Shown here: positions 12,546-46,122 of the stretch, one piece after another
Layout: each line of letters begins with the position of its first letter
Numbering within the stretch: the first letter of the stretch is position 1
Source: a virus
IMG/VR virus record: IMGVR_UViG_3300032102_000006
Reading direction: 5' to 3' (one strand)
DNA length: 49,729 nucleotides
Notes under the pieces: model-generated
Seen by the model: only the letters and a program-made list of their open reading frames with translations
Databases searched by the model: none
What the model was told of the DNA's origin: nothing
Program-made: the position numbers and the translations under genes

Positions 12546-12579
12546 TTAAACTAGCATTTAATACATTATGGAGATCTGG

Positions 12580-15599: not shown

Positions 15600-16545
15600 C
15601 ATAGTTTTTATCAGTTATGATGAACCAAATGCTGATAAAAACTATGCAGACTTATTAACAAAAGCGCCCTGGGCAAAAAGAGTGCATGGGGTTAAAGGCT
15701 TTGACGCCGCACACAAAGCAGCAGCTCGAGTGGCAACTACTGATAGATTTATCACCGTCGATGCTGACAATATTGTGCGAGATGAATTTTTTACTATTGA
15801 ACTTGACATGGACAAGATTGGTCGTCACGATGTTATCAGTTGGGCAGGCAAAAATATTGCCAATGGTCTAGTCTACGGCAACGGTGGTATTAAACTATGG
15901 CCCAAGCACGTAGTCGAACAAATGAAAACACACGAAGCGGCCGAGGACCCAAAGGCACAAGTAGATTTTTGTTGGGACATTTATTATTTTCAAATGAACA
16001 ATATCTACTCTGATGTGCATAATAATGCTAGTGCTTATCAAGCGTTCAGAGCAGGCTTTAGGGAAGGAATTAAACTTTTGTTAGAAGGTGGACAGCCCGT
16101 CGATCCAAGACTACTTAAACAGAGAGTGCATGATAGAAACTACAAGCGAATGTTAGTTTGGTCTAGTGTCGGAGCAGATGTTGATAACGGACTTTGGATG
16201 CAGTTTGGTACTAGACTAGGGGCGTACATGTCTAACCTAGCTAGAGATGAGTTTGACTTTACGCTAGTTAGAGATTATGACTGGATTGACGGATTTTGGG
16301 AAGCAAGCATACAACCGCAGTTTGTTGGCACTACTGGGAAATGCACAGCAACAGGCTGGACTTATGATGTTGAGTTGTTAAAAAAGAAAATATTTACATT
16401 TGGCGAAACACTACGCAGCAGACTAGGTTTGGAAATTGCAGAGTTAGATGCTAACGGTAGCCGCATGTTTAAAGAAAGTTGGATCAATCCTCCTCGCCTT
16501 GGTGCATTAGTAAAAGAAACAGAAGTGGATAATAGCATACAATGA
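15574..16545 (+). CDS. Glycosyltransferase-like protein (NGLVYGxGG family, copy 1)
   Basis: DIVFISYDEPNAD, FITVDADN (DxD), NGLVYGNGGIKLW and AFRAGFRE. Confidence 0.6.
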   Translation: MKAPITNFDIVFISYDEPNADKNYADLLTKAPWAKRVHGVKGFDAAHKAAARVATTDRFITVDADNIVRDEFFTIELDMDKIGRHDVISWAGKNIANGLVYGNGGIKLWPKHVVEQMKTHEAAEDPKAQVDFCWDIYYFQMNNIYSDVHNNASAYQAFRAGFREGIKLLLEGGQPVDPRLLKQRVHDRNYKRMLVWSSVGADVDNGLWMQFGTRLGAYMSNLARDEFDFTLVRDYDWIDGFWEASIQPQFVGTTGKCTATGWTYDVELLKKKIFTFGETLRSRLGLEIAELDANGSRMFKESWINPPRLGALVKETEVDNSIQ

Positions 16546-17939
16546 CTTCTATAAAACAATTTAAACAGCAACTCGATGCAGTAAGCCCTAGTTTTTGTGT
16601 TGCAAAGTGGAAACAGGTGACATTGCATTTACAAACCGGACACAATCATAGTTGCCATCACCCAACTGTACATAAAATCCCGCTGGGAGAAATTGCAATA
16701 AACCCAGCAGCACTGCACAATACTAATTTTAAAAAACAACAACGCAAGAAGATGTTAGAAGGAACTCGTCCTTCTGAATGTGAATATTGCTGGAAAGTAG
16801 AAGACAGTCATGAAGATGCAATAAGCGACCGTGTATGGAAAAGTCATGATGTGTGGGCACAGCCTTACATGCAAGAAGTTGCAGCATTGCCGTGGGATGC
16901 AGACATTAGTCCTAGCTACTTAGAAGTTAGCTTTAGCAGTGTTTGCAATTTTAAATGCAGCTATTGCACTCCGCAGGTAAGCAGCGCATGGATGGACGAA
17001 ATTAAACAGTTTGGCGCATATCCTACACATGATCGATTTAATGACATCACTTGGTATAATGCAGCAGGGCAAATGCCTATCCCTCATAATCAAGATAATC
17101 CCTATGTAGATGCGTTTTGGGCATGGTGGCCCGGCATTTACAAAGAATTAAAACATTTTAGAGTCACAGGTGGAGAGCCATTGTTAAGTAAGGACACATT
17201 TAAAGTTCTTGATTATATTATAGAGAATCCTAATCCAGACCTTGATTTAAGTATCAATAGCAATATGTGTATTCCTGAAGCACTACTTGAAAAGTTTATA
17301 GAAAAAGTAAAAATAATTTGCAGCGAGAAAAAAGTTAGACGATTTAAGATATTCACAAGTGCAGACGCGCACGGCGCAGCAGCAGAATATATTAGAAACG
17401 GTTTAGATTATACTGCATGGTTGGCTAATATACAACGGGTATTAGACCAAGTCCCAGAATGCACTTTTACAATTATGAGCACGTATAATTTACTCAGCGT
17501 TGCAAGTTATTTAAAATTCTTAGAAGACGTTGTTGCTATTAAGAACAAATACGGCGGCGCAACCGGTCGCCCTAATCCTTTAATATTAGATACTCCTTAT
17601 TTGAGATACCCAAGCCATCAGTCTATTTTTCTTTTGCCAAACAATGCGGCAGAATTTATACAAGAACAAGTTGATTTTATGCAACAGCACATGGAAGATC
17701 GTAATGATCCTGCAAAAATAAACACAGGGTTTGCAGAATGGGAAGTTGAAAAGTTTAAGAGAATTTTAGAACTAATGCGATCAAAGGATGAAATTCAGGG
17801 CAGAGTATTGCAATCGCATAAAGATTTTGTTGCATTTGTTGATGAGCACGATCGTCGTAGAGGAACAGATTTTAAAAAGACTTTTCCAGAGTATGTAGCA
17901 CTTTACGACTACTGGAAAGCAAACCCAATAACAGGTTAA
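16542..17939 (+). CDS. Radical SAM enzyme with N-terminal Twitch/SPASM-like domain
   Basis: CNFKCSYC and TGGEP. N-terminal FCVAKW...SCHH...CEYC. Confidence 0.9.
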   Translation: MTSIKQFKQQLDAVSPSFCVAKWKQVTLHLQTGHNHSCHHPTVHKIPLGEIAINPAALHNTNFKKQQRKKMLEGTRPSECEYCWKVEDSHEDAISDRVWKSHDVWAQPYMQEVAALPWDADISPSYLEVSFSSVCNFKCSYCTPQVSSAWMDEIKQFGAYPTHDRFNDITWYNAAGQMPIPHNQDNPYVDAFWAWWPGIYKELKHFRVTGGEPLLSKDTFKVLDYIIENPNPDLDLSINSNMCIPEALLEKFIEKVKIICSEKKVRRFKIFTSADAHGAAAEYIRNGLDYTAWLANIQRVLDQVPECTFTIMSTYNLLSVASYLKFLEDVVAIKNKYGGATGRPNPLILDTPYLRYPSHQSIFLLPNNAAEFIQEQVDFMQQHMEDRNDPAKINTGFAEWEVEKFKRILELMRSKDEIQGRVLQSHKDFVAFVDEHDRRRGTDFKKTFPEYVALYDYWKANPITG

Positions 17940-28904: not shown

Positions 28905-29654
28905 ATGCTGGATGTATTCTTTTTAAGTTATAACGAACCTTATGCCGACGAGAACTATGCGGAGCTACTAAAAAAGGCTCCTCATGCTCGTCGTGTTAAT
29001 GGCATTACGGGATTTACACGAGCACACCAAGAATGTGCTCGTAGAAGTTTAACTAACAACTTTTATGTTGTTGATAGTGATGCAGTTATAGTTGACGAGT
29101 TTGACTTTAAGTTTACCCCGAGTAAGTATAACACATGGTGGGGTATTCCTGAAAGCGAATGTTTATGTTTATGGAACAGCGTCAATCCCATCAACGGACT
29201 CGTTTATGGACACGGTGGTGTTAAACTATTGCCTAAAAAATCCCTACTAACAAAAAATCCCCATACTGTTGACTTTACTACCGGCTTTGGATTGAGTATT
29301 AAGGTATTCGACCAAGTAAGTAATATAACAAAATTTAACTACGACGAGTTTAGCACATGGCGTAGTGCATTTAGAGAATGTGCAAAATTAGCAACGAATT
29401 TAACTAATGAAGAATTGCGGCATAAATTAAATTATAATCAACAGGCAATTGCTCGTGCAATAGAAGAAACTAATCACCGGTTAACTGTGTGGACAAGCAA
29501 AGGTGCAAAAAAATCCTTTGGCAAGTTTGCCATAGAAGGCGCACGAGCAGGAAAAGATTATGGCATCGAGCATGCCGGTGCAGTTGATGCATTAGTTAAG
29601 ATAAATGATTTAGAATGGATGAAAGATGAGTTTATTAAATTCTATAAACAGTGA
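28905..29654 (+). CDS. Glycosyltransferase-like protein (NGLVYGxGG family, copy 2)
   Basis: DVFFLSYNEP, YVVDSDA, NGLVYGHGGVKL and TWRSAFRE. Confidence 0.6.
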   Translation: MLDVFFLSYNEPYADENYAELLKKAPHARRVNGITGFTRAHQECARRSLTNNFYVVDSDAVIVDEFDFKFTPSKYNTWWGIPESECLCLWNSVNPINGLVYGHGGVKLLPKKSLLTKNPHTVDFTTGFGLSIKVFDQVSNITKFNYDEFSTWRSAFRECAKLATNLTNEELRHKLNYNQQAIARAIEETNHRLTVWTSKGAKKSFGKFAIEGARAGKDYGIEHAGAVDALVKINDLEWMKDEFIKFYKQ

Positions 29655-30645
29655 TAATATTTTTGAAGTGTTTAAACCAAGCACTGTAAAATTAAAGGAA
29701 ATTCCGGTAATATTTTTAAGTTTTGATGAGCCTAACGCTGATGAAAACTTTCGACATCTTATTGATAATCACCCTAAACCGCATATGTGCAAAAGAGTGC
29801 ATGGGGTTAAAGGATTCGATGCTGCACATAAAGCAGCAGCTGAAGCAGCAGGCACTGATAGGTTTTTTACAGTTGATGCCGACTGTCAAGTTGATCCTGC
29901 CCTTTGGAAAAAAAGTATCGAGCTAACTAAAGAATTGGCAAGTGCAACATTAAGTTGGAGTAGTAGAAATTTAGTCAATGGTCTAGTCTATGGCAACGGC
30001 GGCGTTAAGCTATGGTTTGCAGAACATGTTAAAAACATGAAGAGTCATGAAGCAGCTGATAAACAGGACGGTAAGAACAATGTTGATTTTTGCTGGGACG
30101 CTGAAAACTACAAGCAAATGAACAATACCTGCGGTATAGTCTATAGTAATGCAAGTCCTAAGCAAGCATTTAGAGCAGGTTTTAGAGAAGGCATTAAAAT
30201 GGGTCTGGACCAAGGGAATAAAGTTGATATAGCCGACTTTAAACACAAGATGTATCCTGCAAATTTTGCACGTTGGCTCATTTGGATGACAGTTGGCAGA
30301 GATGTTGAAAATGGAGCATGGTGTATATATGGAGCACGTTTAGCCGCTTACATGTTGTATGTCGAGAACTTTGACTACACCACTATTGCAGACTACAGCT
30401 GGTTTAATAAATTTTGGAAAGAACAATTAGAAACACTAGCGCACGGGGAATACTTAGAAACGCATAATAAGCAACTTCTCACTGAACTTAGAACAGCACT
30501 AGACCTTCCGTTAGTTGAGCTAGAAGCTGATCAAAGTGTTTGGTTTAAACATGTGCATATTAGTCCTAACAAAGGACAAGGCTGGCCAGCACTGTTGAAC
30601 CAAAGTGCGTTGCCTTTATATGGATTTACTTTACCTAAATTTTAA
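29626..30645 (+). CDS. Glycosyltransferase-like protein (NGLVYGxGG family, copy 3)
   Basis: FLSFDEPNAD, FTVDADC, NGLVYGNGGVKLW and AFRAGFRE. Confidence 0.6.
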   Translation: MSLLNSINSDNIFEVFKPSTVKLKEIPVIFLSFDEPNADENFRHLIDNHPKPHMCKRVHGVKGFDAAHKAAAEAAGTDRFFTVDADCQVDPALWKKSIELTKELASATLSWSSRNLVNGLVYGNGGVKLWFAEHVKNMKSHEAADKQDGKNNVDFCWDAENYKQMNNTCGIVYSNASPKQAFRAGFREGIKMGLDQGNKVDIADFKHKMYPANFARWLIWMTVGRDVENGAWCIYGARLAAYMLYVENFDYTTIADYSWFNKFWKEQLETLAHGEYLETHNKQLLTELRTALDLPLVELEADQSVWFKHVHISPNKGQGWPALLNQSALPLYGFTLPKF

Positions 30646-30647
30646 TA

Positions 30648-31334
30648 ATGACTCCTGTTTATTTTTTATATACAAACGAAGCAAATTTACAAACAAACTG
30701 GGAACGACTGCAACAGTTTGCACCTAAAGCGATTGCAGTAGCAGCAGTTGGTTCGATATTCGAAAGCCATAAGCATATTGCTTCTATGTGCAGTGAATCT
30801 AGTTTTTACGTAGTTGATGCAGACTGCTGGATAGTCGATCGGTTTAGCTTTGATAAAAAAATAGAACTAACACCGCGCAGTGTTGCAGTGTTTAGAGCAA
30901 AGAATCCCATCAACGGATTAGTTTATGGTCATGGGGGTATAAAGCTGTTCAGCAGCGATTGTTTCGGCGTAGAGCGCTTAGACAAGCCCGACATGACCAC
31001 CACATTAGCTGATAGTTATATCAAGGTTAATATATTAGCCAGCGAACATAGATTTAACTACAGCCCATATGCCACTTGGCGAACAGCATTTAGAGAAGCA
31101 ATCAAGTTAAGCGCAGGCATTAATAAAAACAACAATGATCAAGAAAGCCTGGACCGTCTTAACATGTGGCTAAACGCTGGTATAGAAGCAGAGCACGGAT
31201 ACTTTGCTATACAAGGTGCTAGAGCCGGAGAACAGTATGCACGTTCTAAAGCAGCAGACTTCACGCTTGTTAATAATTTTGCGTGGCTAGAAAGCCAATT
31301 CAAAGAATGGACGGGATTAAATGCAGGCAAATGA
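30648..31334 (+). CDS. Glycosyltransferase-like protein (NGLVYGxGG family, copy 4)
   Basis: YVVDADC, NGLVYGHGGIKLF and TWRTAFRE. Confidence 0.6.
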   Translation: MTPVYFLYTNEANLQTNWERLQQFAPKAIAVAAVGSIFESHKHIASMCSESSFYVVDADCWIVDRFSFDKKIELTPRSVAVFRAKNPINGLVYGHGGIKLFSSDCFGVERLDKPDMTTTLADSYIKVNILASEHRFNYSPYATWRTAFREAIKLSAGINKNNNDQESLDRLNMWLNAGIEAEHGYFAIQGARAGEQYARSKAADFTLVNNFAWLESQFKEWTGLNAGK

Positions 31335-32178
31335 CATAACATGGTTATTTGGAGTTGAAAAGTATTTTCATTTTGTACAGGACTCGTCTAAAAAAGAATT
31401 TATACGTAATATTATAAATTTAAAATATGCAGATCCTGCTTCTAAACCATGGAGCTTGCGTAATTTAATTTCTGATGACTATAAGAAATACCCCGAGTTG
31501 CAACGAGAAGATCGTTTAAATTTTTACACTAAAGTATGTTCAGTCAATGAAATTACTACAGAAGAAATAACGTTTGCACTTCGTTCGATTTGGCCCGATG
31601 ATTCTATTGTGTGCAAGTTGAATAAGATAATGGAATTAGGCTACGGCGATTTACTTCCTGTTATATTTTCTAAAAGTCAAGTATTGAGTAAGATTTGGAT
31701 GGCTGAAATTCTTTCTAAATTCGATACTAAATTTAACACCATCCTATTGATCGGCGGCTGGCTAACACATCATACATGGTATCTAACTGACTTAAAATTT
31801 AATACCTTATATAGCATAGACCCTGATAACAGCATAAACGATCTAGTAGCAGAAGTAAATCCCGGCGCGTTTGTTTTAAATAAAGATGTAATAGACTGTT
31901 TTGATTCTAACAATAGATTGTCTTTTTACAATAAGACTTTAGATGCAGATTTAATTATTAACACCAGTAGCGAACATATGGATCAACAATGGTTCGAACG
32001 GTTGCCGATTGGTTCTCGTGTGTTTATCGAAGGTAACAATTATTCTATACCGGAACATATTAACTATTCTCATTCTTTTGATAATTTTATAGAAAAATAC
32101 CCTATGACCACAACGTTATATAAGGGTGAATTGACTTTGCAAAATTATTCTAGATATGCAATTTACGGAATCAAATAA
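31321..32178 (+). CDS. Class I SAM-dependent methyltransferase-like protein
   Basis: ILLIGGW (motif I-like), SIDPD and DLIINTSSEH in the C-terminal half. Confidence 0.5.
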   Translation: MQANDITWLFGVEKYFHFVQDSSKKEFIRNIINLKYADPASKPWSLRNLISDDYKKYPELQREDRLNFYTKVCSVNEITTEEITFALRSIWPDDSIVCKLNKIMELGYGDLLPVIFSKSQVLSKIWMAEILSKFDTKFNTILLIGGWLTHHTWYLTDLKFNTLYSIDPDNSINDLVAEVNPGAFVLNKDVIDCFDSNNRLSFYNKTLDADLIINTSSEHMDQQWFERLPIGSRVFIEGNNYSIPEHINYSHSFDNFIEKYPMTTTLYKGELTLQNYSRYAIYGIK

Positions 32179-33350
32179 TGTATCATTATAATGAAATAAC
32201 TACAGTGCATTTAGAAATGACAGAAGCATGTAATGCCAGCTGCCCTATGTGCGCAAGGAACCTAAACGGCGGAGAAGTAAGCCCTTTGCTACATGGTGCA
32301 GAATTGTCTATTGCAGATATAGAGCATATATTTTCCGTTGAATTTATTCAACAGTTAAACCGTTTATACATGTGCGGCAACTATGGAGATCCGGCTGTAG
32401 CAAGTGACACACTAGAAGCGTTTGCTTACTTTAGAGAACATAATCCTAAAATAAATTTAAGCATGCATACGAACGGCAGTATGAAGAAACCTGAATGGTG
32501 GGCAGAACTAGCACAGGTCATTAATGGCCGTGGACATGTAGTATTCGGGATTGACGGGCTAGAGGATACAAATCATTTATATAGACAAGGCACTGTTTTT
32601 AAAAAGATAATGGAAAACGCTGCGGCATTTATTCAAGCAGGCGGTCGGGCACGCTGGGATTATATTGTCTTTGCACACAATGAGCACCAAGTAAAAGAAG
32701 CCCGTGCTCTAGCTGAACAAATGGGTTTTGAAAAGTTTAATATCAAAAAGTCTAATAGATTCTTTAGTAATACTCGCGGTGAAGTCAAACAAGAGCATCA
32801 AGCAGGAAATCGTAAAGGAGCAGCAACTACTCTGCTGGCTATGCCCTCTAATCCTGAGTATCACAACCAAGCTATTAAAAAACTCAGTGATATTACAAAA
32901 GGGCAACAGTCTGATCCTTATCAACTTATCACAACTGTTGCAGAACTAGAAGGACGTGTTGGTAGTCAAAAGTTTAACACAGATCCTGATAAGAAAAAGC
33001 CTATGGAAAAATATTGGGACTCTGTTCCTATTAAGTGCAAGGTAGCAGAAGAAAAAAGCATTTACATTACAGCCGAAGGCTACTTACAACCTTGCTGCTG
33101 GACTGCTGGGCAAATGTATGTTTGGTATTGGAAAAACCGTGGCGGACAAATTTGGGATGCAATAGATCGAGCAGGTTTAGATACACTTGACTTAAAAAAG
33201 ATATCACTTGAGCAGGCTATAGAAGGACAGTTTATGCAGGAAGTTGTACCCAATAGTTGGAACAAGCCTAGTTGTGCAGAAGGTAAATTAGCAGTATGTG
33301 CCAAGACATGCGGAACTAAATATGATGTATTTGCAGAACAATTTAAATGA
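32178..33350 (+). CDS. Radical SAM enzyme with C-terminal SPASM/Twitch-like domain
   Basis: CNASCPMC, GNYGDP and TNG. C-terminal C...PCC...CAKTC. Confidence 0.9.
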   Translation: MYHYNEITTVHLEMTEACNASCPMCARNLNGGEVSPLLHGAELSIADIEHIFSVEFIQQLNRLYMCGNYGDPAVASDTLEAFAYFREHNPKINLSMHTNGSMKKPEWWAELAQVINGRGHVVFGIDGLEDTNHLYRQGTVFKKIMENAAAFIQAGGRARWDYIVFAHNEHQVKEARALAEQMGFEKFNIKKSNRFFSNTRGEVKQEHQAGNRKGAATTLLAMPSNPEYHNQAIKKLSDITKGQQSDPYQLITTVAELEGRVGSQKFNTDPDKKKPMEKYWDSVPIKCKVAEEKSIYITAEGYLQPCCWTAGQMYVWYWKNRGGQIWDAIDRAGLDTLDLKKISLEQAIEGQFMQEVVPNSWNKPSCAEGKLAVCAKTCGTKYDVFAEQFK

Positions 33351-34474
33351 AATTAAAAGACGTTAAAAAAGTAGAATTAGAAATTACAAGCAACTGTAAT
33401 GCAGCTTGCCCTGGTTGTGCAAGAACACAAAATTTAGACCTTATAACTATAGATACAGTAACATTAGCAGACATAATTAATATGTTTCCTGACGAAGAAT
33501 CTATAGAAGATAAACGTTTTAAATTTTGCGGAGTATTAGGCGACCCTATTATCAATAAAGAATGTTTAGATATTGTAACTTATCTAGTAGCACATGGCGG
33601 ACATTGTCAATTGAGTACAAATGCCGGACTACGCGATGCAGAATTTTGGTCGTCACTGGGTAGTTTAAGCCTGCATACTGGGAGAGTAGATATTAATTTC
33701 TGTATCGATGGACACAGAGAAACTAATCACATTTATCGTATTAATACAGACTGGGATGTTATCGAACGTAATATAGAAGCGTATTCAGCAGCCGGTAACA
33801 AACAAGCATTGGGTACTTGGGTGTACATTGTATTTGATCATAACGAGCGAGAAGTAGAAATAGCGCAGGCACATGCAGAACGTTTAGGTTTTACATTTGC
33901 TACAAGAACTGGCATGCGAAATAGTCTGCACAACTGGGTTAGTGATCTTAAGAAAAAGGATAAAAAGACACGAAAAGTAACAGAACAACACACGGTTATC
34001 ACTACCACTGGAAACAAAGAACATAGTAAAAAAGAATTAGTGCAAGCACTTGACCAGTTTATTAGTATTGCAAATAAAAAGAAAAAAACTCCTCCTCCAA
34101 ATGTTATGATGATGCTAACAGACGACGACTATGATAAGAAAAAACAAGAAGTTATTGATAGCATCAAATGCAAGATGATACATGAAGACGAAATTTTTAT
34201 TGCAAGCAATATGACACTATGGCCATGTTGTTTCCTCTGGGATAATGCTTTTAAGAATAAAGAAAACATAAACGAAAAACTTGGTATATTCGAAGAAGGG
34301 TGGAACGATCTACGCAAGCATAGCGTAGATGAAATTATGGCTCATCCTTGGTTTAGTAAGATTTTAGGGGACAGCTGGGATCCAGACCATCCCTTACACT
34401 TTAGCCGATGCATTAGAACATGTGCTTACAATAAAGCATATCAAAACGAATTTAATTATAAAGATAAAAAATAA
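33347..34474 (+). CDS. Radical SAM enzyme with C-terminal SPASM/Twitch-like domain
   Basis: CNAACPGC and GVLGDP. C-terminal C...PCC...CIRTC; paralog of the previous gene. Confidence 0.9.
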   Translation: MKLKDVKKVELEITSNCNAACPGCARTQNLDLITIDTVTLADIINMFPDEESIEDKRFKFCGVLGDPIINKECLDIVTYLVAHGGHCQLSTNAGLRDAEFWSSLGSLSLHTGRVDINFCIDGHRETNHIYRINTDWDVIERNIEAYSAAGNKQALGTWVYIVFDHNEREVEIAQAHAERLGFTFATRTGMRNSLHNWVSDLKKKDKKTRKVTEQHTVITTTGNKEHSKKELVQALDQFISIANKKKKTPPPNVMMMLTDDDYDKKKQEVIDSIKCKMIHEDEIFIASNMTLWPCCFLWDNAFKNKENINEKLGIFEEGWNDLRKHSVDEIMAHPWFSKILGDSWDPDHPLHFSRCIRTCAYNKAYQNEFNYKDKK

Positions 34475-35872
34475 ATGGCAAATTTACCTAGCAAAACATT
34501 TTGTATTCTTCCGTGGGTACATTTAAGCACTCGCCCAAACGGCCATATGCGCGTATGCTGTACTGCAAATGCTAGCAGCGTAGGTCCAACAAACGATAAA
34601 GTACATGGCGGCGAAGTTGGTGTGCTCAAAAATGATGATGGCAAGCCAGCAAACTTAAACGTAACTGATTTTTTAAGTAGTTGGAATAATACCTACATGA
34701 AAAATACTCGTCTTAAAATGCTAGCAGGCGAAGAGCCTCCTAGTTGCACCAAGTGTTACAAAGAAGAACGTGAAGGTCATAAGAGTAAGCGCCAATGGGA
34801 AACATCCTACTGGGCTCAACGAGTAAATGTTGATAAGCTAGTTGCTGATACCGCAGAAGACGGGAGCATTCCGCCGCAGATTACCTACATAGACATGCGC
34901 TTTGGCACCAAGTGTAACCTAGCCTGTGTTATGTGCAGCCCGCACGATAGTAGCCTTTGGGTGCCAGAGTGGAACGCAGTTTATCCTACTATCGAGAACG
35001 CAACTTTGAAAGAAACAATGGGTTGGAACAACAAAGGTAAGGAAAATGGAGCTAGCTATAACTGGCACAAGAACAACCCTAAGTTCTGGGAACAGTTGTG
35101 GGAACAAGTACCCAACATGAAACAGCTTTACTTTGCTGGCGGGGAACCTTTGATCATTGAAGAACACTATAAGATTCTGGAGCAATGTATCAAACAGGGC
35201 TATGCAAAGGACATGGAAATACGTTATAATAGCAATGGCGTAGAGTGGCGCGAAGATTTATTTGAGCTATGGAGTCATTTTAAACTAGTTCGTTTCCACT
35301 ACAGTGTTGATGCAGTTGGCGAGCGTAATGATTACATTCGCTATCCGAGTAAGTGGGATCGCAACCTAGAGGCATTTAGGCAATTGGATGAAGAGACCGG
35401 TGACAACGTAGAAGTGACTATTGCATGTGCAGTGCAGGCGCTAAACATTTACTACATTCCAGAATTCCTAAAGTGGAAATTAGAGCATGGGTTTAAAAAG
35501 ATTAACATGTGGCCATTTGGCGCCGGCGGAGTCAACTATCACTTTGTCTATCACCCACCACACCTAAACGTTAAAGTACTGCCAATGTGGTTTAAGGATG
35601 AGATTGAACGCAAGTACGAAGAGTTTATCCCATGGTGGCAAGCTAATTGGGAAAAGGGTGTTCCGGAATGGCACATTGGCAAGGTAACACAGGAAATGTT
35701 TGATAAGGCAGACTACGGTGTAGATCGTCTACGCGGCATGGTTCGCTTTGCTAAGAGTGAGGACTGGAGCAATAGACTTCCTGAAATGAAAGAGTATTTA
35801 GAAAAGTTAGATGCACATCGAGGCACCAACTTTTATGAAACGTTTCCCGAAATGAAGGATATATTTAAATGA
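34475..35872 (+). CDS. Radical SAM enzyme with N-terminal Twitch/SPASM-like domain
   Basis: FCILPW...RVCC...CTKC, then CNLACVMC and AGGEP. Confidence 0.9.
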   Translation: MANLPSKTFCILPWVHLSTRPNGHMRVCCTANASSVGPTNDKVHGGEVGVLKNDDGKPANLNVTDFLSSWNNTYMKNTRLKMLAGEEPPSCTKCYKEEREGHKSKRQWETSYWAQRVNVDKLVADTAEDGSIPPQITYIDMRFGTKCNLACVMCSPHDSSLWVPEWNAVYPTIENATLKETMGWNNKGKENGASYNWHKNNPKFWEQLWEQVPNMKQLYFAGGEPLIIEEHYKILEQCIKQGYAKDMEIRYNSNGVEWREDLFELWSHFKLVRFHYSVDAVGERNDYIRYPSKWDRNLEAFRQLDEETGDNVEVTIACAVQALNIYYIPEFLKWKLEHGFKKINMWPFGAGGVNYHFVYHPPHLNVKVLPMWFKDEIERKYEEFIPWWQANWEKGVPEWHIGKVTQEMFDKADYGVDRLRGMVRFAKSEDWSNRLPEMKEYLEKLDAHRGTNFYETFPEMKDIFK

Positions 35873-37200
35873 GCGGACCGATAAAATGTTTTTACACCCT
35901 AGGCGGCTTAAATTACAAAAATGGTTTTGTAACTAGTTGCCCTCAACAGAGCGATCAATTACACATAATTGAAAATGCTAATCTAATTAAGCCTAGCGAT
36001 ATTTTAAATAGCAACGGCTTTAAAAACCACAGGTTGGAAATGATGTCGGGTAACTGGAGTAGCGGTTGTCATTTATGCAAAGATGTAGAGCAATCAAATG
36101 CAGGCCGCAGTATGCGAGCTGACTACTCGGCAATAGAAGATGACTATGATGTAACAACCGGTGCTATTAAGTTCACTGGCTTACGGCATGTCGAATTACG
36201 TTTTAGTAATGCATGTAATATGGCTTGTTTGCACTGTAGCGAAGTGTATAGCAGTGGGTGGATGTCTAAGCTCAAACATTATAACGCTGATAAAGAAGAC
36301 TGGTCTAATAATTTAATTCAACTAACCAAAACTATGCATAGGTCCAGTCCCGACGACGATATGAGTATAAGCATTAGCATAGAAGAGATGACTGAAATTG
36401 TCAACGACTTAAATGACAATTTTCCAAATATAGAAAAAGTAGATTTTGCAGGCGGTGAAGTATTGTACCAAAAACAGTTCTTTCCTTGTTTGGAATTACT
36501 AGGTCAACACCCAAACGCTAAAAACATGACGTTGTGTTTTCATTCTAATTTCAATGCTAAATTTGATCCTGTTCGTTTATACGAATTATTAAGTGTCTTC
36601 GGTAAAGTTACTATTATGTTGAGTATAGACAGCGGCAGAAACATATATCCTTACTTTAGAACTGGTAATTGGGATGTACTAAAATCTAATGTTGATACGT
36701 TCAAAGCACTAGACAAGAGAAAAAAGATGGATATAAATTTAGTTTGCACAACTAGCGTTTATCAAATTATGGACATCGAAAATATTATAGAGAGTTTTCT
36801 CAGTTTAGATATAGATTGGATTAAAAGTAGCATTGTATATACGCCTAAATATTTAAATCCAGCAATTCTTATGCATAATTTTGAAGAGTATATTCGACAA
36901 GACTTGCAAGCAGCACGCTTACTTGTTGATGCAGAAAAAATAAAAAGATTTGCTAACATAGAAGTGTATTCTAAGTTAAGATCGTGGAGGAAAGGAAAGC
37001 AACATTTTGCAGACATTGACAGTGCATATACTGCACTAGACGGGATAGAGGATTATATTTTTAATCATAAAGCAGAAGTAAATCAGTACGAAGCATTCTT
37101 AGTTTATATCAAGAAGACTGATTTGATTTGGAAACAAAATTTTAATGATCATTTTGTTAAGTACAAATACGAAAATAATAAAATAGTTAGGAAAGAATAA
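35869..37200 (+). CDS. Radical SAM enzyme with N-terminal Twitch/SPASM-like domain
   Basis: C...SC...CHLC, then CNMACLHC and AGGEV. Confidence 0.88.
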   Translation: MSGPIKCFYTLGGLNYKNGFVTSCPQQSDQLHIIENANLIKPSDILNSNGFKNHRLEMMSGNWSSGCHLCKDVEQSNAGRSMRADYSAIEDDYDVTTGAIKFTGLRHVELRFSNACNMACLHCSEVYSSGWMSKLKHYNADKEDWSNNLIQLTKTMHRSSPDDDMSISISIEEMTEIVNDLNDNFPNIEKVDFAGGEVLYQKQFFPCLELLGQHPNAKNMTLCFHSNFNAKFDPVRLYELLSVFGKVTIMLSIDSGRNIYPYFRTGNWDVLKSNVDTFKALDKRKKMDINLVCTTSVYQIMDIENIIESFLSLDIDWIKSSIVYTPKYLNPAILMHNFEEYIRQDLQAARLLVDAEKIKRFANIEVYSKLRSWRKGKQHFADIDSAYTALDGIEDYIFNHKAEVNQYEAFLVYIKKTDLIWKQNFNDHFVKYKYENNKIVRKE

Positions 37201-38039
37201 TGATGGATTTTACAGCATCAAATAAATTGTACGCATCTGCGGATCCTGCGTTAGGAATTAATCTTTATAAGTTCGACGGTTTAGATATACCATTCAACCC
37301 CGACTGGAAGAACATTGGTATTAATCTAAGCGGCGGCGCCGATAGTAGTTGCTTGTTAATGTTATTAAGTAAAATAATATTGCAAACAGGAAGCAAATGC
37401 CGTGTGCATGTAATTCAGCATCACCGTTGCTGGAATATTCGCCCATGGCAATCGTTTATTGCACAACAGGTATTTGATAAATTTCAATCTTTGTTTCCTG
37501 GCATAGAATACATACGCTATAAAAATTTTATCCCTGTGTCATTAGAATGGGGCGTTCTTGGTCCTATTACTAAAGATGCTAAAGGTCGTGATCGCAGCGG
37601 AGATCAGATTATAGTAGATGAATTTAACGAATACGTTATGTATAACGAAAACTTAGACGCTTTGTATAACGGTACTAGTCGCAACCCTGATGTTGATCTT
37701 CCGCACAAAATGATGAACAGAGAAAAGGCGCCCGAAGAAGGAGAATTACGCGACTTAATGCTTAAAAAGCGCAAGGGAATAGTTTTATTGCCATTTAAGT
37801 TTGTTCGCAAGGACTGGATCGTTGCAGAATTTTATCGACAAGGACTGGAAGATTTGTACAACACAACTCGTAGTTGTGAAGGAAACGTTGGTCATCCTAC
37901 TAGTGCAGACATAATCCTTTCGCTCGATGACTACAAGCCCGGAATGTACGTTCCGTTATGTAATGAATGTTTCTGGTGCTTAGAAAGAAACTGGGCAGAC
38001 GGCAAACTACAAGAAACACTTGCAAAATTCAATGACTAA
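37200..38039 (+). CDS. QueC-like PP-loop ATPase (adenine nucleotide alpha-hydrolase)
   Basis: NLSGGADS PP-loop and TRSC...CNECFWCLER Zn-site pattern. Confidence 0.7.
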   Translation: MMDFTASNKLYASADPALGINLYKFDGLDIPFNPDWKNIGINLSGGADSSCLLMLLSKIILQTGSKCRVHVIQHHRCWNIRPWQSFIAQQVFDKFQSLFPGIEYIRYKNFIPVSLEWGVLGPITKDAKGRDRSGDQIIVDEFNEYVMYNENLDALYNGTSRNPDVDLPHKMMNREKAPEEGELRDLMLKKRKGIVLLPFKFVRKDWIVAEFYRQGLEDLYNTTRSCEGNVGHPTSADIILSLDDYKPGMYVPLCNECFWCLERNWADGKLQETLAKFND

Positions 38040-39342
38040 TACTTTTTGCCCTATACCTTGGAACTTTCAAGCTATACGTGCCAATGGCGACGTGCGTATT
38101 TGCTGTCAAGCCAACGTAACTAATAACCAAGGTGTTATCCGCAAGGCAGATGGTTCTGCTTATAATGCAGGCCGTGATGACTTGCTCAAGGCACGTAATG
38201 CAGAACTAATGAAGATAGTTCGTAAAAATATGTTAGCGGGAGAGTGGAGTGAAGAATGTGGTCGTTGTAAAAGTGAAGAAGCAAACGGATTGGTTAGTAG
38301 ACGTAGTTATGAAAATCAACAATGGCCTATGCAGATTGAGACGGTTGCGAATAGAACAGCCAAGGACGGAAGCATAAACGTAAACGACTTTCCTGTACAT
38401 TACTATGACTTACGCTTTGGTAACTTCTGTAACTTGAAGTGCCGCATGTGCGGTCCAACGGATAGTAATGCCTGGTATGATGATTGGATCGAACTAACTG
38501 GCACTAGCGAGTTTAAAGATACAGGCGGTATCGTACAAATAACAAAAACAGATAAAGGCTACGATGTTCCCCAGTTTGATTGGTGCAATCACGAGCCATT
38601 TTGGGAACAGCTAGAAAAGAACATGCATAATATTGAGCATGTTTATTTTGCAGGTGGCGAACCAATGCTGATCGAACGACATTACGATTTCCTTGAGCGT
38701 TGCGTTAACAGTGGCGCAGCCGAGAAAATGGTTATTGAATACAATACTAATATGAGCACAGTGCCTACTAGAGTATTAAACCTTTGGGCACAGTTTAAGC
38801 AAGTGCGTGTAGGTGCAAGTGTCGACGGCATGGGCGCAGTGTTAGAATATCAACGCAATCCTGCCAAGTGGGGTAAAGTATTAGCAAACTTATACAAAGT
38901 CGATGCGCTACCTAATAACGTTATCAGTTGGCTTGCTTTTACAGTTACAGCTTATAATGTATTGCATATGATTGACTTTATGAAATGGAAGCTAACTGAA
39001 AGTAAATTTAAGCGAATAAACAGTAGCAACCGTAGACCTATAGTAACATATCATGTTGCCCATCATCCAAAGCATTTAAACATCCGTGTATTGCCTGCAG
39101 AATTTAAACAAGAAGTAGCTCACCGCTATGCTGAGTTTTTGCAATGGGTAGAACAAGGCAACTTCAATGAGCATGTCGAGCGTCATGCAAAAGAAATTGC
39201 TAATGGTGTAGTTAGTTATATGTCAAGTGAAGACTATCACGATAAACACTGGCACGAGTTTGTTAAATACACAGAAGATTTAGACCGTATCCGCGGCGAA
39301 TCTGTTACATATATAGAACCAGAATTTAAAAAATACATATGA
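38032..39342 (+). CDS. Radical SAM enzyme with N-terminal Twitch/SPASM-like domain
   Basis: FCPIPW...RICC...CGRC, then CNLKCRMC and AGGEP. Confidence 0.9.
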   Translation: MTNTFCPIPWNFQAIRANGDVRICCQANVTNNQGVIRKADGSAYNAGRDDLLKARNAELMKIVRKNMLAGEWSEECGRCKSEEANGLVSRRSYENQQWPMQIETVANRTAKDGSINVNDFPVHYYDLRFGNFCNLKCRMCGPTDSNAWYDDWIELTGTSEFKDTGGIVQITKTDKGYDVPQFDWCNHEPFWEQLEKNMHNIEHVYFAGGEPMLIERHYDFLERCVNSGAAEKMVIEYNTNMSTVPTRVLNLWAQFKQVRVGASVDGMGAVLEYQRNPAKWGKVLANLYKVDALPNNVISWLAFTVTAYNVLHMIDFMKWKLTESKFKRINSSNRRPIVTYHVAHHPKHLNIRVLPAEFKQEVAHRYAEFLQWVEQGNFNEHVERHAKEIANGVVSYMSSEDYHDKHWHEFVKYTEDLDRIRGESVTYIEPEFKKYI

Positions 39343-40067
39343 GCGATTTAATCTCAAATTACAAAACACTAGACTTGCTAACCGGAAGTGTTTTCCAAGT
39401 TACATGGGACCTTGGTCGCAGATGCAACTATGATTGCAGCTACTGCCCTGCAATTAGGCATGACAATTTTAGTTCCCATGCAAGTCTAGAAGAACTTAAG
39501 AAAAATGCAGACTTTGTTTTCAAATATATTAGTTTGTATATGAAATATCGTAACTATAAAGAAGCAAGCATCAGTTTTACTGGCGGTGAGCCAACAGTTA
39601 ATCCAAACTTTATTGAGTTTATTAAATATTTGAACGAAACGTATGAAACAAACTATAAAGATCAATTTGTATGTACATTTGCATTAACAAGTAACGGAGC
39701 AATGAGTCCTAAAATGGCAGATGCAATTGTTGAGCATATGAGTCACATTACAATAAGTTATCACACAGAAGCAGATCAAAGTATCAAGGACAATGTGCTA
39801 GAGAGAATTCAACAAATTTATACTAACGGTCCTGCAAAATGGTGCACCGTTAGTATAAATGTAATGTTTCACGCTCAGTATTTTGATGAATGTGTTAAAG
39901 TTTGCGAATTTTTGGATAGTAAAGGCATCGGTTATGTTCCGCGGGTCATAGGGGAAGAACCTGATAGCCGACCTAGTTTTGCACATAAATATTCCGATGA
40001 GCAGCTCAAGTGGATGAAAGACTACTGGGCAAAGAAAAATAAAAAGGTACAGGAACAACATGGCTGA
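39339..40067 (+). CDS. Radical SAM core domain protein (no own C-terminal auxiliary domain)
   Basis: WDLGRRCNYDCSYC, TGGEP and TSNG. Confidence 0.88.
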   Translation: MSDLISNYKTLDLLTGSVFQVTWDLGRRCNYDCSYCPAIRHDNFSSHASLEELKKNADFVFKYISLYMKYRNYKEASISFTGGEPTVNPNFIEFIKYLNETYETNYKDQFVCTFALTSNGAMSPKMADAIVEHMSHITISYHTEADQSIKDNVLERIQQIYTNGPAKWCTVSINVMFHAQYFDECVKVCEFLDSKGIGYVPRVIGEEPDSRPSFAHKYSDEQLKWMKDYWAKKNKKVQEQHG

Positions 40068-40497
40068 AGAGAAAAAACTTGGGATGAAGATCGGTCGCCC
40101 TTGCTGCGGCGGTAGAACAATGTGTTTTAGTAGCGGCGGCGAAAGCATCACTGGCACATTTAGCGGACAACGAGAATTTAAAAGCTGGCATTGCAGTGTA
40201 AATTGGTTCTTCTTTCATATAGAACAACAAACAGGTAATGTATTCCATCACCAAACTTGCCAAGCGCAGTTCGGTGAAACGCGAGGTCCTATCGGAACGC
40301 TACAAGATAGCGACAAGATATTAGAAGAACTAGAACGCAATTTACAAAATCAAACAATGCCTACTATTGTATGTCCCCGTAAAACTTGTGGTTGTGGTAT
40401 GTGTGCGCCGAAAAGTATCGAAAAAGAAGATTATAAGCGTGTATTTTTTGGACATGTAAACGATACTAGTATTTTTAATAAGACGTTAAACAAATAA
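40060..40497 (+). CDS. Stand-alone Cys-rich SPASM-like Fe-S domain
   Basis: PCCGGRTMC, WHC, TC and CPRKTCGCGMC. Has its own AGGA SD. Confidence 0.65.
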   Translation: MAEEKKLGMKIGRPCCGGRTMCFSSGGESITGTFSGQREFKSWHCSVNWFFFHIEQQTGNVFHHQTCQAQFGETRGPIGTLQDSDKILEELERNLQNQTMPTIVCPRKTCGCGMCAPKSIEKEDYKRVFFGHVNDTSIFNKTLNK

Positions 40498-40519
40498 TCG
40501 ATACATTGTTACATTTCTA

Positions 40520-41620
40520 ATGTCGAAATACTACTGCCCAATACCATTTCATCACATAGCAATGCGTCCTAACGGGACTATGCAACCGTGCTGCTATTTT
40601 AATCACCAAGATATTCCCCAAGATTTTACATTAGCTTATAAAAATTTGTTTTACGAACATCCGTTTATGAAACAAATGAGAGATGACCTTCGCAAAGACA
40701 AACCAGTTAACGGGTGTAGCAAATGTTATAAAGCAGAACAACTCACAGGCAAAAGTATGCGAACAGAGTATATTGCAGAAAGTCGATTGGGATTTAGTGA
40801 TACTCCTCCTTCAGAGCCTGTTCTAACATACATAGATTTAGCATTGAGTAATGTGTGTAATAATCGTTGCCGCATGTGTGGATTCGAATTGAGTACAAAT
40901 TGGTACAGCGATAGTAAGAAGTTGGGAAGAGAAATTCCTCACGGCCTTATACAACATAAAAACGATTTAACTGATATAGACTTTAGCAAGATTAACTATA
41001 TTAAAATGATCGGCGGCGAACCTTTGATGGAGCAGGACAAGTTTATCGCAGTACTCGAAAAATGTAAGTTAAACGAGTTAAACATCCTAGTAACTACAAA
41101 TGCAACAGTAAGGCCAAACAACAAGCTGCTGGCGCTATTACAACAGTGTAAAAAAGTTCGTTGGAATTTAAGTATAGATGCGTTCGGTCCGTTAAATGAC
41201 TTTTTGCGAAAAGGAAGTTACTGGGATGAAGTAAAAGAAAACATTGCATGGTTTGCAATCAACTTTTATAAGAACGTTAATATAAACGGGGTTGTTAGCA
41301 TTTACAACTCAAATAATTTTTTCGAGCTAACAGATTACACATCTAAACACCATCCGGAAGTTAATGTTAAATTCAATATGATAGATGGTGTTGATTATAT
41401 GCACCCCAAGCATTTGCCTGACTCGGCTAAACAGTACTTAATAAAAAAGATATCAGCACTTGATTATCCTGTAGCGCCCAGAGTAGTTGATGCACTCAAG
41501 CAACACGGCGACTTTAGTCTTTTCTTAAAAGAAGATACTGTTATGAATGAACTCAGAAACGAAACATGGTATGAACTTAATCCAGAGCTGTTTGAATTAA
41601 TTAAAGACTACTTGCCTTAA
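40520..41620 (+). CDS. Radical SAM enzyme with N-terminal Twitch/SPASM-like domain
   Basis: YCPIPF...PCC...CSKC, then CNNRCRMC and IGGEP. Confidence 0.9.
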   Translation: MSKYYCPIPFHHIAMRPNGTMQPCCYFNHQDIPQDFTLAYKNLFYEHPFMKQMRDDLRKDKPVNGCSKCYKAEQLTGKSMRTEYIAESRLGFSDTPPSEPVLTYIDLALSNVCNNRCRMCGFELSTNWYSDSKKLGREIPHGLIQHKNDLTDIDFSKINYIKMIGGEPLMEQDKFIAVLEKCKLNELNILVTTNATVRPNNKLLALLQQCKKVRWNLSIDAFGPLNDFLRKGSYWDEVKENIAWFAINFYKNVNINGVVSIYNSNNFFELTDYTSKHHPEVNVKFNMIDGVDYMHPKHLPDSAKQYLIKKISALDYPVAPRVVDALKQHGDFSLFLKEDTVMNELRNETWYELNPELFELIKDYLP

Positions 41621-41629
41621 ATATCATAC

Positions 41630-41863
41630 ATGACAACCATAACTGATTTGCCTTTGCGTCAATTGCAACTAGAAGCAGCCCGTGTAATAAGTACAATGCC
41701 TGCCACGAATGATAACATATACAAATTTAATATTGCTAGCAGACATAACAGCCAAGGCTGGTATATTGCGGCTATCGAATGGTATGTAAAAGAATACGGC
41801 GGCTTGCCAAGCGAAGTCGGACCCGGTAAAGACGTTAAAATGATATACGAACAAGATGAGTGA
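41630..41863 (+). CDS. Small hypothetical protein
   Basis: 77 aa filling the gap between two radical SAM genes. TAAATA 6 nt upstream; 8-nt overlap downstream. Confidence 0.65.
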   Translation: MTTITDLPLRQLQLEAARVISTMPATNDNIYKFNIASRHNSQGWYIAAIEWYVKEYGGLPSEVGPGKDVKMIYEQDE

Positions 41864-43046
41864 TGATTTAAAGAAAAGCGCATACGACTTTACTAAGATA
41901 CCATACAAGGATATAGTAAGGGTGGGACAAAGAACAATGCTATACCGTGACATGTTCACAGTAAGCTGGTTGCTAGGGCGCTACTGTAACTATCGTTGTA
42001 GCTATTGCTGGCCCTATGCCCGCAGTGATAAAAAAGATCATCGTCCTACACCTTTAATGCTTAAGACAGTTGACGAGATTAAACGTCAAGCTCGTGAACG
42101 TGGCTTTAATAGTTTCCACTTTAGTCTAAGTGGCGGCGAGCCAACATTCCACCCTGCTTACATTGACATCTTAAACTACTTGAATGATGACGTACACAAT
42201 ACAAACTATACCAGCGTACACATGACAAGTAATATGAGTCGTCCTTTAAAATGGTTTGAAGAAAAGTATGTGCCCGCAGTAAAGAACTTCCATCGTGCAA
42301 GTATCACAGCAAGTTGTCATCGCGAGCACGTGGATACAGACGACAAGGTTCGAGAGTTTGCCGATAAATTAGTCTTATGTCAGGACTACGATACACAGAT
42401 TACCGTTAACCAAGTTATGGTACCTGAACAGTTCTATGAGATATATGACTTAGCCCTTTACTTCCATGAACGTGGCATCAACGTTACACTAAAGCCACAA
42501 AGCGATCCTACTGCGAGTAGAGTTGTTGATGGCTACACTGATGACATGTTGGAAAAGTTGCACAACGGTATGCCGCAACGTGCCTTTACGGAACAAAAAG
42601 CAGCAGTAGCAGGACTAGTGGCTCGCCCAAAGCCTACATTTAAGATTGACGAAGCACGTACAATGCAAAAGCAAACTTACAGTCAAGGTGTGCCACAACA
42701 CTTCCAAGTAGAATTTATTGATAAAGATGGCGAGACTTGGTTCATGGATCAAGCAGAACGCTTTAACGCATTCAACTTTAACAACTTTAACAAGTGGGAA
42801 TGTAGCAGTGGTTACCGCAGTATTATTATTCGCGAACCTGATGGAACAGTTAAGCGTAGCTACAGTTGCAGCGAAGTTCCACTTGGTCATATCGAGACCG
42901 GATTCAAGTTATATGACAAGCCAATGCCTTGTGGCGGAACAAGTTGCGTAAGTAGTGCAGATAGTAAGATACCAAAAAGAGCACCTGGCACTAAATTGCC
43001 GCTGTTCCCAGGAGATACAACATATGAAGATACTAGTAGCAGGTAA
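41856..43046 (+). CDS. Radical SAM enzyme with C-terminal Cys domain
   Basis: WLLGRYCNYRCSYC and SGGEP. C-terminal WEC...SC...C....C. Confidence 0.9.
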   Translation: MSDDLKKSAYDFTKIPYKDIVRVGQRTMLYRDMFTVSWLLGRYCNYRCSYCWPYARSDKKDHRPTPLMLKTVDEIKRQARERGFNSFHFSLSGGEPTFHPAYIDILNYLNDDVHNTNYTSVHMTSNMSRPLKWFEEKYVPAVKNFHRASITASCHREHVDTDDKVREFADKLVLCQDYDTQITVNQVMVPEQFYEIYDLALYFHERGINVTLKPQSDPTASRVVDGYTDDMLEKLHNGMPQRAFTEQKAAVAGLVARPKPTFKIDEARTMQKQTYSQGVPQHFQVEFIDKDGETWFMDQAERFNAFNFNNFNKWECSSGYRSIIIREPDGTVKRSYSCSEVPLGHIETGFKLYDKPMPCGGTSCVSSADSKIPKRAPGTKLPLFPGDTTYEDTSSR

Positions 43047-43572
43047 CAGTGAGTACGGTCTAGCACAAGCTATCCGCCAAGAGTTAACAGACTATGATAT
43101 AACTTTTCTAAGTAGGAAAAGCGGATACGATTTAACTCGTGCAGAGCAACAGGCACGATTTGCCGAAGCAGCCGTTGACTTTGATGTTATTATATTATGC
43201 AGTGCTCTTTGGAAATTTAACCAAACGTTATTACTAGAAGCAGTTTATAAAAAGACAAAAGCAGAAGGAAAAAGCCCTTTGATTATCTGCATAGGTAGCA
43301 CTACTGATAGAGTAAACAAAGCGTCTGACTGGTTATATAGTGCAGAGAAAAAAGCTCTACGTGACTATGCTAATAGTCTCAGTCTATCCGGAGTATGGAA
43401 CAAATGTCCGCGTGTCACTTATATTAGTTTTGGTACATTAACTAATATGCAACATAAACATCCTGACAGAAAAACTTTACAGATAGAAAAAGCCGCTCAA
43501 TATATCAAATGGATAATAGAGCAGCCCGAAGGAACACACATCAACGAACTAAGTGTTGATCCTGTGCAGTAA
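43024..43572 (+). CDS. Short-chain dehydrogenase/reductase (SDR)-like protein
   Basis: MKILVAGNSEYGLA Rossmann start (ATG 43024), IICIGS and catalytic YSAEK (YxxxK). Confidence 0.75.
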   Translation: MKILVAGNSEYGLAQAIRQELTDYDITFLSRKSGYDLTRAEQQARFAEAAVDFDVIILCSALWKFNQTLLLEAVYKKTKAEGKSPLIICIGSTTDRVNKASDWLYSAEKKALRDYANSLSLSGVWNKCPRVTYISFGTLTNMQHKHPDRKTLQIEKAAQYIKWIIEQPEGTHINELSVDPVQ

Positions 43573-46114: not shown

Positions 46115-46122
46115 TATTTATA
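46115..46122 (-). promoter_or_regulatory. TATAAATA T4-type late promoter consensus
   Basis: Plus strand tatttata at 46115-46122, within an imperfect inverted repeat upstream of the 46083 start. Confidence 0.55.

Follow-up and report, generated by a model that had tools for sequence, protein, structure and literature searches.

The subject of this article is an array of radical S-adenosylmethionine (SAM) enzyme genes, and the genes around it, in an uncultured T4-like water phage. The window, by which we mean the whole stretch of DNA analysed (49,729 nucleotides), was taken from IMG/VR record IMGVR_UViG_3300032102_000006, a 90-kb viral record whose genes include one for a Gp23 capsid protein of the T4 type (E 1e-80). 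Its CheckV completeness of about 25% implies a full genome of several hundred kilobases. From position 3 to 43572, all genes lie on the plus strand and follow each other nearly without gaps. The series starts with a virion structural protein of 2819 amino acids (aa) (VrlC-like phrog_10938, E 9e-186) and fibre-like genes, and continues with a block of family-less proteins that includes a glycosyltransferase (GT)-like gene (15574) and the first radical SAM gene (16542). Next comes a sugar-precursor block, also on the plus strand, with two DUF6071 proteins, a cupin, a fused nucleotidyltransferase-kinase, an AroE-like protein, a GatZ-like protein, and a carbamoyltransferase (E 1e-52). Three GT-like paralogues, a conserved 285-aa protein, and an array of eight radical SAM genes follow, trailed by thyA and DHFR on the opposite strand. 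All 38 operon proteins lack transmembrane (TM)-like segments, and no flippase, polymerase, or polyprenyl-phosphate transferase was found in the phage operon. Genes are named below by their start position in the window.

The eight array genes are packed into 10.9 kb (32178-43046), and a hidden Markov model (HMM) search of the 90-kb record finds these and 16542 only, nine in all. Every one of the nine open reading frames (ORFs) contains exactly one CxxxCxxC motif and matches Pfam Radical_SAM (PF04055; E 3e-13 to 1.8e-05). On the protein scan, seven of the nine exceed the cut-off of 29.5 bits, the two below it being 33347 (25.4 bits) and 16542 (28.2 bits; 31.2 in the genome scan). An earlier sequence-only reading of the window had listed eight such ORFs plus the one at 16542 and had divided them over three architectures. 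The genes are present as claimed (the one given as 38032 is ORF 38020-39342), and motifs, HMM scores, and alignments confirm the three classes, here called A, B, and C.

Class A (16542, 34475, 35869, 38020, and 40520) consists of full-length members of NCBIfam NF033640 (N_Twi_rSAM), scoring 204-438 bits against a curated cut-off of 170 bits, whereas classes B and C, at 30-42 bits, are outside the family. In class A, a four-Cys twitch-type site precedes the radical SAM core. Across 49 diverged aligned sequences, C10, C91, C94, C147, C151, C154, and the GGE motif do not vary, and at least 90% have C28; the Pfam SPASM model scores 17-18 bits on residues 6-95, under its cut-off of 21.5. The highest score (438 bits) belongs to 34475-35872, an anchor gene of the related loci discussed below, followed by 38020-39342 (379 bits; 36% identity to 34475) and 16542-17939 (343 bits; CNFKCSYC at residue 135; Cys19/38/80/83), which is paired with the GT-A-like gene 15574. 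The gene at 40520-41620 encodes a short form of 366 aa (222 bits; CNNRCRMC at residue 113), and 35869-37200 is a variable cassette (204-205 bits; CNMACLHC at residue 116).

Class B enzymes (32178-33350 and 33347-34474) have the core first, a GDP motif at the usual place of GGE, and the invariant cysteines C287/C306/C374/C378 (WPCC...CxxxC). The former, with CNASCPMC at residue 18, is an anchor with an orthologue in 44 of 51 related loci; the latter, 27% identical to it, is a variable cassette with orthologues in 10. Class C enzymes (39339-40067 and 41856-43046) have a common WxLGxxCNYxCSYC motif and GGE. No curated family cut-off is reached by class B or C. The long class C form, 41856, is again an anchor (CNYRCSYC at residue 44; 69-91% identity in phage contigs). 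Its short counterpart 39339 (242 aa; CNYDCSYC at residue 29; Pfam Radical_SAM E 1e-11) is followed by a 145-aa ORF with nine cysteines (40060-40497). The latter aligns to the C-terminal third (residues 271-396; 40% identity, E 3e-35) of a single 402-aa class C protein (L028:7565-8773), so that 39339 and 40060 make up a split class C enzyme, namely a core piece and a detached Cys-rich C-terminal domain that is fused in L028. The two reading frames overlap, and the two-gene split recurs in four further loci (L019, L032, L054, and L057).

The most frequent partners of these enzymes are the GT-like proteins, the commonest non-radical-SAM family of the islands (108 members in 41 loci). One of the four window paralogues (15574-16545; 45% identity to 29626) directly precedes 16542. 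The other three stand in tandem at 28905-29654, 29626-30645, and 30648-31334; they are linked by paralogy and have a weak Pfam GT2 match. D84 and D86 of the DxD motif are invariant in 18 sequences. An AlphaFold2 model (predicted local distance difference test (pLDDT) 82.7) aligns with GT-A folds at Z 9-11 (B4GALNT1, a Leptospira GT, SpsA, WrtF, and ThuS at Z 9.8-11) and a root-mean-square deviation of 3.0-3.3 A over about 140 residues. Judged by the motif and this model, the family qualifies as GT-A-fold transferases with a putative transferase activity. The conserved 285-aa protein (31321-32178), present in 39 related loci, has Rossmann-like motifs and ESM Atlas neighbours among Methyltransf_31 and PCMT (scores 0.86-0.96); its methyltransferase-like identity is a lead only. 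Sequence searches of the PDB gave no meaningful match for either family.

Three further genes lie within or at the end of the array. The PP-loop ATP pyrophosphatase-like protein at 37200-38039 combines an SGGxDS motif, of which S44/G45/D48/S49 never vary and G46 is kept by at least 90% of sequences, with a C-terminal site of four invariant cysteines (C226/C254/C257/C260). TilS, NAD synthetase, and Asn synthetase match it weakly, its layout is QueC-like, and its family occurs inside the radical SAM arrays of 16 related loci, sometimes in duplicate. At the end lies a short oxidoreductase of the short-chain dehydrogenase/reductase (SDR) type (43024-43572), with weak NCBIfam SDR matches, a G-rich N-terminus, GSTTD, and YxxxK; its ORF runs from 42955, with translation probably beginning further inside, at an MKIL around 43024. 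The sole apparent gap of the array (41620-41856) is filled by a 77-aa ORF at 41630-41863, which is missed by ORF lists with an 80-aa minimum and whose conservation across about 20 loci amounts to 46-91% identity. It always sits beside an anchor radical SAM gene, either adjoining the orthologue of 41856 or between those of 31321 and 32178. The protein contains no cysteine, is conserved over its entire length, and has no family relative. Its PDB matches were designed repeat proteins aligned over short stretches only, and these were discounted.

Orthologues of 34475 were found in 51 viral contigs at 51-95% identity (51 of 51 related loci), and more than 5000 relatives are detectable in the protein database. 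Together, the window and the 51 loci contain 385 radical SAM ORFs, 380 of which belong to the three classes (222 A, 102 B, and 56 C); the other five are short and outside them. Two more candidate ORFs, both short, without the Cys motif, and at or beside a locus edge, were excluded from the 385. At 45% identity the set resolves into 82 orthogroups. Many of the 51 loci retain a fixed frame: the carbamoyltransferase, three GT-like genes, the 31321-like gene, B-32178, cassettes, A-34475, more cassettes, and often the SDR and C-41856. Three conserved radical SAM anchors (B-32178, A-34475, and C-41856) are interspersed with swappable cassettes.

The sequence-only reading had taken the strong divergence of the array members to speak against recent duplication, and it had called their density extreme. 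The first view holds: the copies are old paralogues under functional constraint, as paralogues of one class are only 21-36% identical while most genes have phage orthologues at 55-95%. The ratio of nonsynonymous to synonymous substitution rates (dN/dS) against the available orthologues is about 0.01-0.2, a rough estimate given that dS is saturated (>1.5) in every comparison; it suggests purifying selection on the radical SAM genes, with nothing pointing to relaxation. The second view is not borne out: eight genes in 10.9 kb are normal for this clade, as five larger related records have 8-15 Radical_SAM matches each, so that the density is a trait of the clade and not of this window.

Bacterial relatives were sought in 185,579 species genomes with the GT-like family as query. 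The neighbours of the GT-like gene in bacteria are orthologues of precisely the three anchors, A-34475 (58-65% identity), B-32178 (45-48%), and C-41856 (56-59%). The contigs with this core are binned to Bdellovibrionales and Bacteriovoracaceae (L137, 6704-12337; L091, 3536-11736; L085, L094, and L123). L137 is a Bdellovibrionales chromosome of 2.2 Mb, on which the five-gene core is flanked by a ribosomal-protein/SecY/Adk operon on one side and by fatty-acid genes on the other. Such housekeeping flanks indicate that the core is cellular and not a mis-binned phage. An ORF at the SDR's place in this core (9284-9958) was rejected as its counterpart, being non-homologous and metallo-beta-lactamase-like. 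In L091 (Bacteriovoracaceae), four GT2 genes that exceed the Pfam cut-off surround the core, together with a PP-loop enzyme, a flavin adenine dinucleotide (FAD)-dependent amine-oxidase/GLF-like enzyme, and an eight-TM protein, a setting that by analogy resembles a surface-polysaccharide locus. Several other matches in metagenome-assembled genomes (MAGs) are on contigs with phage fibre genes, which probably belong to phages.

Among 50,697 phage records, megablast returned no match to the array. Protein searches found relatives in cultured phages at 23-25% identity only (Vibrio K566/K567, Ralstonia RsoM2USA, the Campylobacter CP220 group, and Pelagibacter Mosig), and class C had no match in these searches. 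A first parallel is offered by the T4-related Campylobacter phages CP220 and CPt10, which carry 11-12 radical SAM genes, including an interchangeable module of five, a finding called highly unusual (Timms et al. 2010, PMC2853527). In CP220, the five-gene module lies behind the baseplate genes and beside two nucleotide-diphospho-sugar transferases and an amidinotransferase. It differs from the window in that its enzymes are about 25% identical to class B over the radical SAM core, no class A orthologue was found, and the partners are others (amidinotransferase and PAP2 phosphatase). A second parallel is the host recognition cluster of pelagimyophages and cyanomyophages, which shares with the window a hypervariable island, there between VrlC and tail-fibre or neck genes. 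Radical SAM cassettes in the pelagimyophage cluster were mentioned in one sentence, without analysis, and the freshwater group was said to be devoid of them (Zaragoza-Solas et al. 2020, PMC7029224). In Pelagibacter phage Mosig, the stretch from the tail fibres to VrlC encodes radical SAM enzymes next to a DegT aminotransferase, a carbamoyltransferase, and an epimerase, but its radical SAM genes are only about 23% identical to those of the window. Our literature search found no paper that names NF033640 and none that assigns a function to such arrays. NF033640 itself, in which five of the nine genes are full-length members with the N-terminal four-Cys site, CxxxCxxC, and GGE, is a catalogue entry with no assigned function, and classes B and C fall outside it. 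What the window itself contributes is a class C enzyme split over two genes, a conserved partner ORF of 77 aa, and a clear outline of the A/B/C anchors as a core. The sequence-only reading had recognised neither 40060 as the tail of 39339 nor the three-gene core that phages and bacteria have in common.

Comparison with characterised radical SAM families sets bounds on what these enzymes can be. Cofactor-biosynthesis families were rejected, with best scores of 40 bits for MoaA (cut-off 284), 30 for NirJ2 (500), 20 for QueE (260), and 17 for NifB (344); the clustering with MoaA, NirJ, or QueE that would have spoken against the sequence-only reading is thus not seen. Matches to AhbC/D, anSME, and the named peptide maturases are likewise all far below their curated cut-offs. 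The viperin family (NF038283, cut-off 180) was set aside at a best score of 46 bits, obtained by 39339 over the N-terminal core only. BtrN, anSME, DesII, and BlsE share with the window enzymes the combination of a radical SAM core and an auxiliary four-Cys cluster site. The class A cysteine pattern (Cx17C...CxxC) is one that we take to resemble the twitch pattern of BtrN. A BtrN-like twitch dehydrogenase was nonetheless rejected for class A, whose auxiliary domain is N-terminal and not C-terminal as in BtrN and anSME; there is no BtrN family match, and BlsE scores 20 bits against a cut-off of 400. By sequence, the PDB offered the three classes marginal matches only (SkfB, NifB, and anSME; E 3e-4 to 0.02). 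The AlphaFold2 model of 34475 (pLDDT 89.4) fits the generic radical SAM barrel, with BlsE, DesII, viperin, CteB, anSME, SkfB, and SuiB tied at Z 11-12; in these matches, the N-terminal domain is mostly unaligned and sequence identity is 12-18%.

Taking the locus as a whole, we think it fairly probable that the phage encodes its own pathway for building and editing sugars, that this pathway runs entirely in the cytoplasm, and that the array carries out its tailoring. The analysis itself shows the identities, motifs, and conservation of the genes, the pattern of cassettes, the GT2 setting in a bacterium, and that all products are soluble; a sugar substrate, the types of reaction, and the acceptor are what we infer from the setting. 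This interpretation is favoured because the radical SAM genes are embedded among four DxD-containing, predicted GT-A-fold transferase paralogues, with sugar-handling genes upstream on the same strand and further tailoring genes (the YxxxK SDR and the PP-loop enzyme) within the array. It is also favoured because the gene frame recurs in many of the 51 viral loci, the bacterial core of L091 sits among four GT2 genes, and the cultured phages Mosig and CP220 repeat the theme of radical SAM and sugar genes. Finally, the island follows the virion structural and fibre genes, and all its proteins are free of TM-like segments. The sugar-directed role suggested by the sequence-only reading thus fits the surroundings of the array; that the members carry out distinct sequential reactions, as it also proposed, may be so.

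In such a pathway, the upstream cupin, nucleotidyltransferase-kinase, AroE-like, GatZ-like, and carbamoyltransferase proteins would make and nucleotide-activate an unusual sugar or polyol, which the four GT-A-fold paralogues would transfer onto a soluble acceptor. The [4Fe-4S] cluster bound by CxxxCxxC would then, together with SAM, generate a 5'-deoxyadenosyl radical that abstracts hydrogen from an unactivated sugar carbon. A second four-Cys cluster (N-terminal in class A, C-terminal in classes B and C) could accept the electron, as in BtrN/anSME, and the sugar might be oxidised, epimerised, or deoxygenated, or undergo C-C/C-methyl chemistry. Finishing of the products would fall to the SDR, the PP-loop enzyme, and the methyltransferase-like protein. 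Herein, B-32178, A-34475, C-41856, and a GT would form an ancient core, and the other radical SAM cassettes would diversify the product between related phages.

Without TM segments, a flippase, a polymerase, or a polyprenyl-phosphate transferase, the phage version would be cytoplasmic and its acceptor soluble. Since the island comes straight after the structural and fibre genes, the most attractive candidate acceptors are virion proteins, and we tentatively propose the fibre or structural proteins encoded just upstream. A small pseudo-oligosaccharide is a rather unlikely acceptor, and host envelope precursors are just as unlikely. Conceivably, the product may also be a modified nucleotide-sugar that is passed on to the host. 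More speculatively still than for the virion proteins, one may see the three classes as a combinatorial glycan-editing toolkit, in which A, B, C, and GT build a core sugar on a soluble acceptor (notably fibre or virion proteins) that swappable cassettes rewrite. If so, closely related phages would display different surface chemistries.

Critically speaking, several points weigh against a sugar pathway. Classes A-C are uncharacterised, and their sugar substrate is itself an inferred one. The Pfam GT2 score of the GT-like family (19.8 bits) is below the cut-off of 23.3, and the GT-A fold is also common to cytidylyltransferases. In L137, the core stands alone among housekeeping genes, with no further sugar genes nearby. 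The class A model is equally close to enzymes acting on sugars or nucleotides (BlsE, DesII, and viperin) and on peptides or proteins (CteB, anSME, SkfB, and SuiB), so that structure cannot pick the substrate class. Lastly, related islands also encode Asp/Asn beta-hydroxylase-like and nitroreductase-family genes, whose products can act on peptides.

The last two points lead to the alternative that survives best, although we hold it to be unlikely. Here, the radical SAM enzymes would modify a protein or peptide (through crosslinks, epimerisations, or oxidations) on the fibre or a small phage protein, after the model of anSME, QhpD, and the maturases of ribosomally synthesised and post-translationally modified peptides (RiPPs), and the GT-like proteins would glycosylate the same protein. 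SkfB, SuiB, CteB, and anSME are indeed among the top fold matches, the hydroxylase-like and nitroreductase-family genes would suit such chemistry, a conserved 77-aa ORF stands beside the anchor genes, and the island comes directly after the fibre genes. However, Pfam and NCBIfam report no RRE- or PqqD-like peptide-recognition domain in any of the radical SAM genes. The only small neighbour, the 77-aa protein, is free of cysteine and conserved throughout, which argues against a RiPP-type precursor, and it was not found in the bacterial cores. Moreover, the core is surrounded by bona fide GT2 and sugar-activation genes, seen in bacterium and phage.

A slightly poorer candidate is a pathway to a free small sugar metabolite, i.e., an aminoglycoside- or nucleoside-like pseudo-oligosaccharide that would act within the infected cell or outside it, for example against competing phages or host defences. 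All enzymes are soluble, carrier-lipid and export genes are absent, and the AroE-like dehydrogenase, the TobZ-type architecture of the carbamoyltransferase, and twitch radical SAM enzymes make up an aminocyclitol-like toolkit, to which CP220 adds an amidinotransferase. Distant homologues of the GT-like family occur in Micromonospora, Salinispora, Streptomyces, and Actinosynnema, and a 2025 cyanophage paper gave the speculative label of antibiotic synthesis to genes including one radical SAM gene (PMC12801897). Against this stand the fixed location in the structural/host-recognition region, the polytopic membrane protein and four GT2 genes of L091, which are typical of surface polysaccharide loci, and the absence of resistance as well as export genes.

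Hypermodification of nucleotides or of the phage DNA (with 7-deazaguanine-like or glycosylated bases) appears improbable. The PP-loop protein with its QueC-like layout, thyA and DHFR just downstream, a QueD-like gene near the similar radical SAM modules of CP220, and the best NCBIfam matches of class C, viperin and MoaA, which act on nucleotides, would all fit; but thyA and DHFR form a separate module on the opposite strand, FolE, QueD, DpdA, and TET-type proteins are absent from family scans of window ORFs of at least 100 aa, the scores for QueE, QueC, viperin, and MoaA are far below their cut-offs, and the bacterial homologues lie among GT2 genes. Auxiliary metabolic genes that boost the host's cofactor or anaerobic metabolism, as suggested for CP220 (Timms et al. 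2010, PMC2853527), are very improbable here, as the weak matches to MoaA, NirJ, AhbD, and NifB are all far below curated cut-offs, the partner genes of cofactor pathways are absent, and the cassette-like turnover (82 orthogroups) is at odds with conserved housekeeping chemistry.

Should the sugar-editing pathway be real, phages and Bdellovibrio-type predators, both attackers of Gram-negative cells, would share its chemistry, and all three classes would be new to radical SAM carbohydrate enzymology. The aquatic T4-like and jumbo phages with islands of this kind, 10-30 kb long, form a very large group. Owing to the place of the islands in the host-recognition region, the product could have a bearing on host range, virion stability, or phage competition. 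For enzymologists, they offer dozens of diverged two-cluster radical SAM enzymes with sugar-handling partners, which are made tractable by a bacterial core that is compact, with about four conserved genes, and by culturable carriers (RsoM2USA, Mosig, and CP220).

Some minor observations concern expression and supply. An array of this size may create a large demand for Fe-S clusters and SAM during infection, as the sequence-only reading held. No IscU, flavodoxin, or Fer2 (2Fe-2S ferredoxin) gene was found in the 90-kb record, and no IscU gene in the five related records; since all of these are fragments, such absence proves little. The T4 late-promoter word TATAAATA has a single occurrence in the 49.7 kb, where chance alone would give 6.6. 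It stands at 46115-46122 on the minus strand, in a divergent region at about 46.1 kb, with a hairpin and a strong sigma-70-like site next to it. Neither sigma-70-like nor terminator-like sites show enrichment, so that these signals give no sign of internal transcription units or of timing.

Other observations concern neighbouring genes and distant relatives. Between the fibre genes and the GT-like/radical SAM pair, three plus-strand genes with no family match (12568, 12917, and 13815; window 12568-14654) form a block conserved in many phage contigs, including ones binned into unrelated MAGs (L064, L068, L072, and L106). A lone GT-like homologue (about 40% identity) is found in many cultured Rhodobacterales (Sulfitobacter, Tateyamaria, Ruegeria, and Cribrihabitans; L069, L073, L075, L078, L081, L082, L086-L090, and L093). 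In a Rhodobacteraceae isolate, a Pseudomonadota MAG, and Ostreiculturibacter (L099, L101, and L105), a class B radical SAM gene lies about 6 kb from the GT-like homologue. Finally, a 701-aa frame in one related record (G002:C1:81495-82895) contains two Radical_SAM matches, which suggests a fused two-domain radical SAM protein, and single frames of 649-701 aa are also present in G001, G003, and G004.

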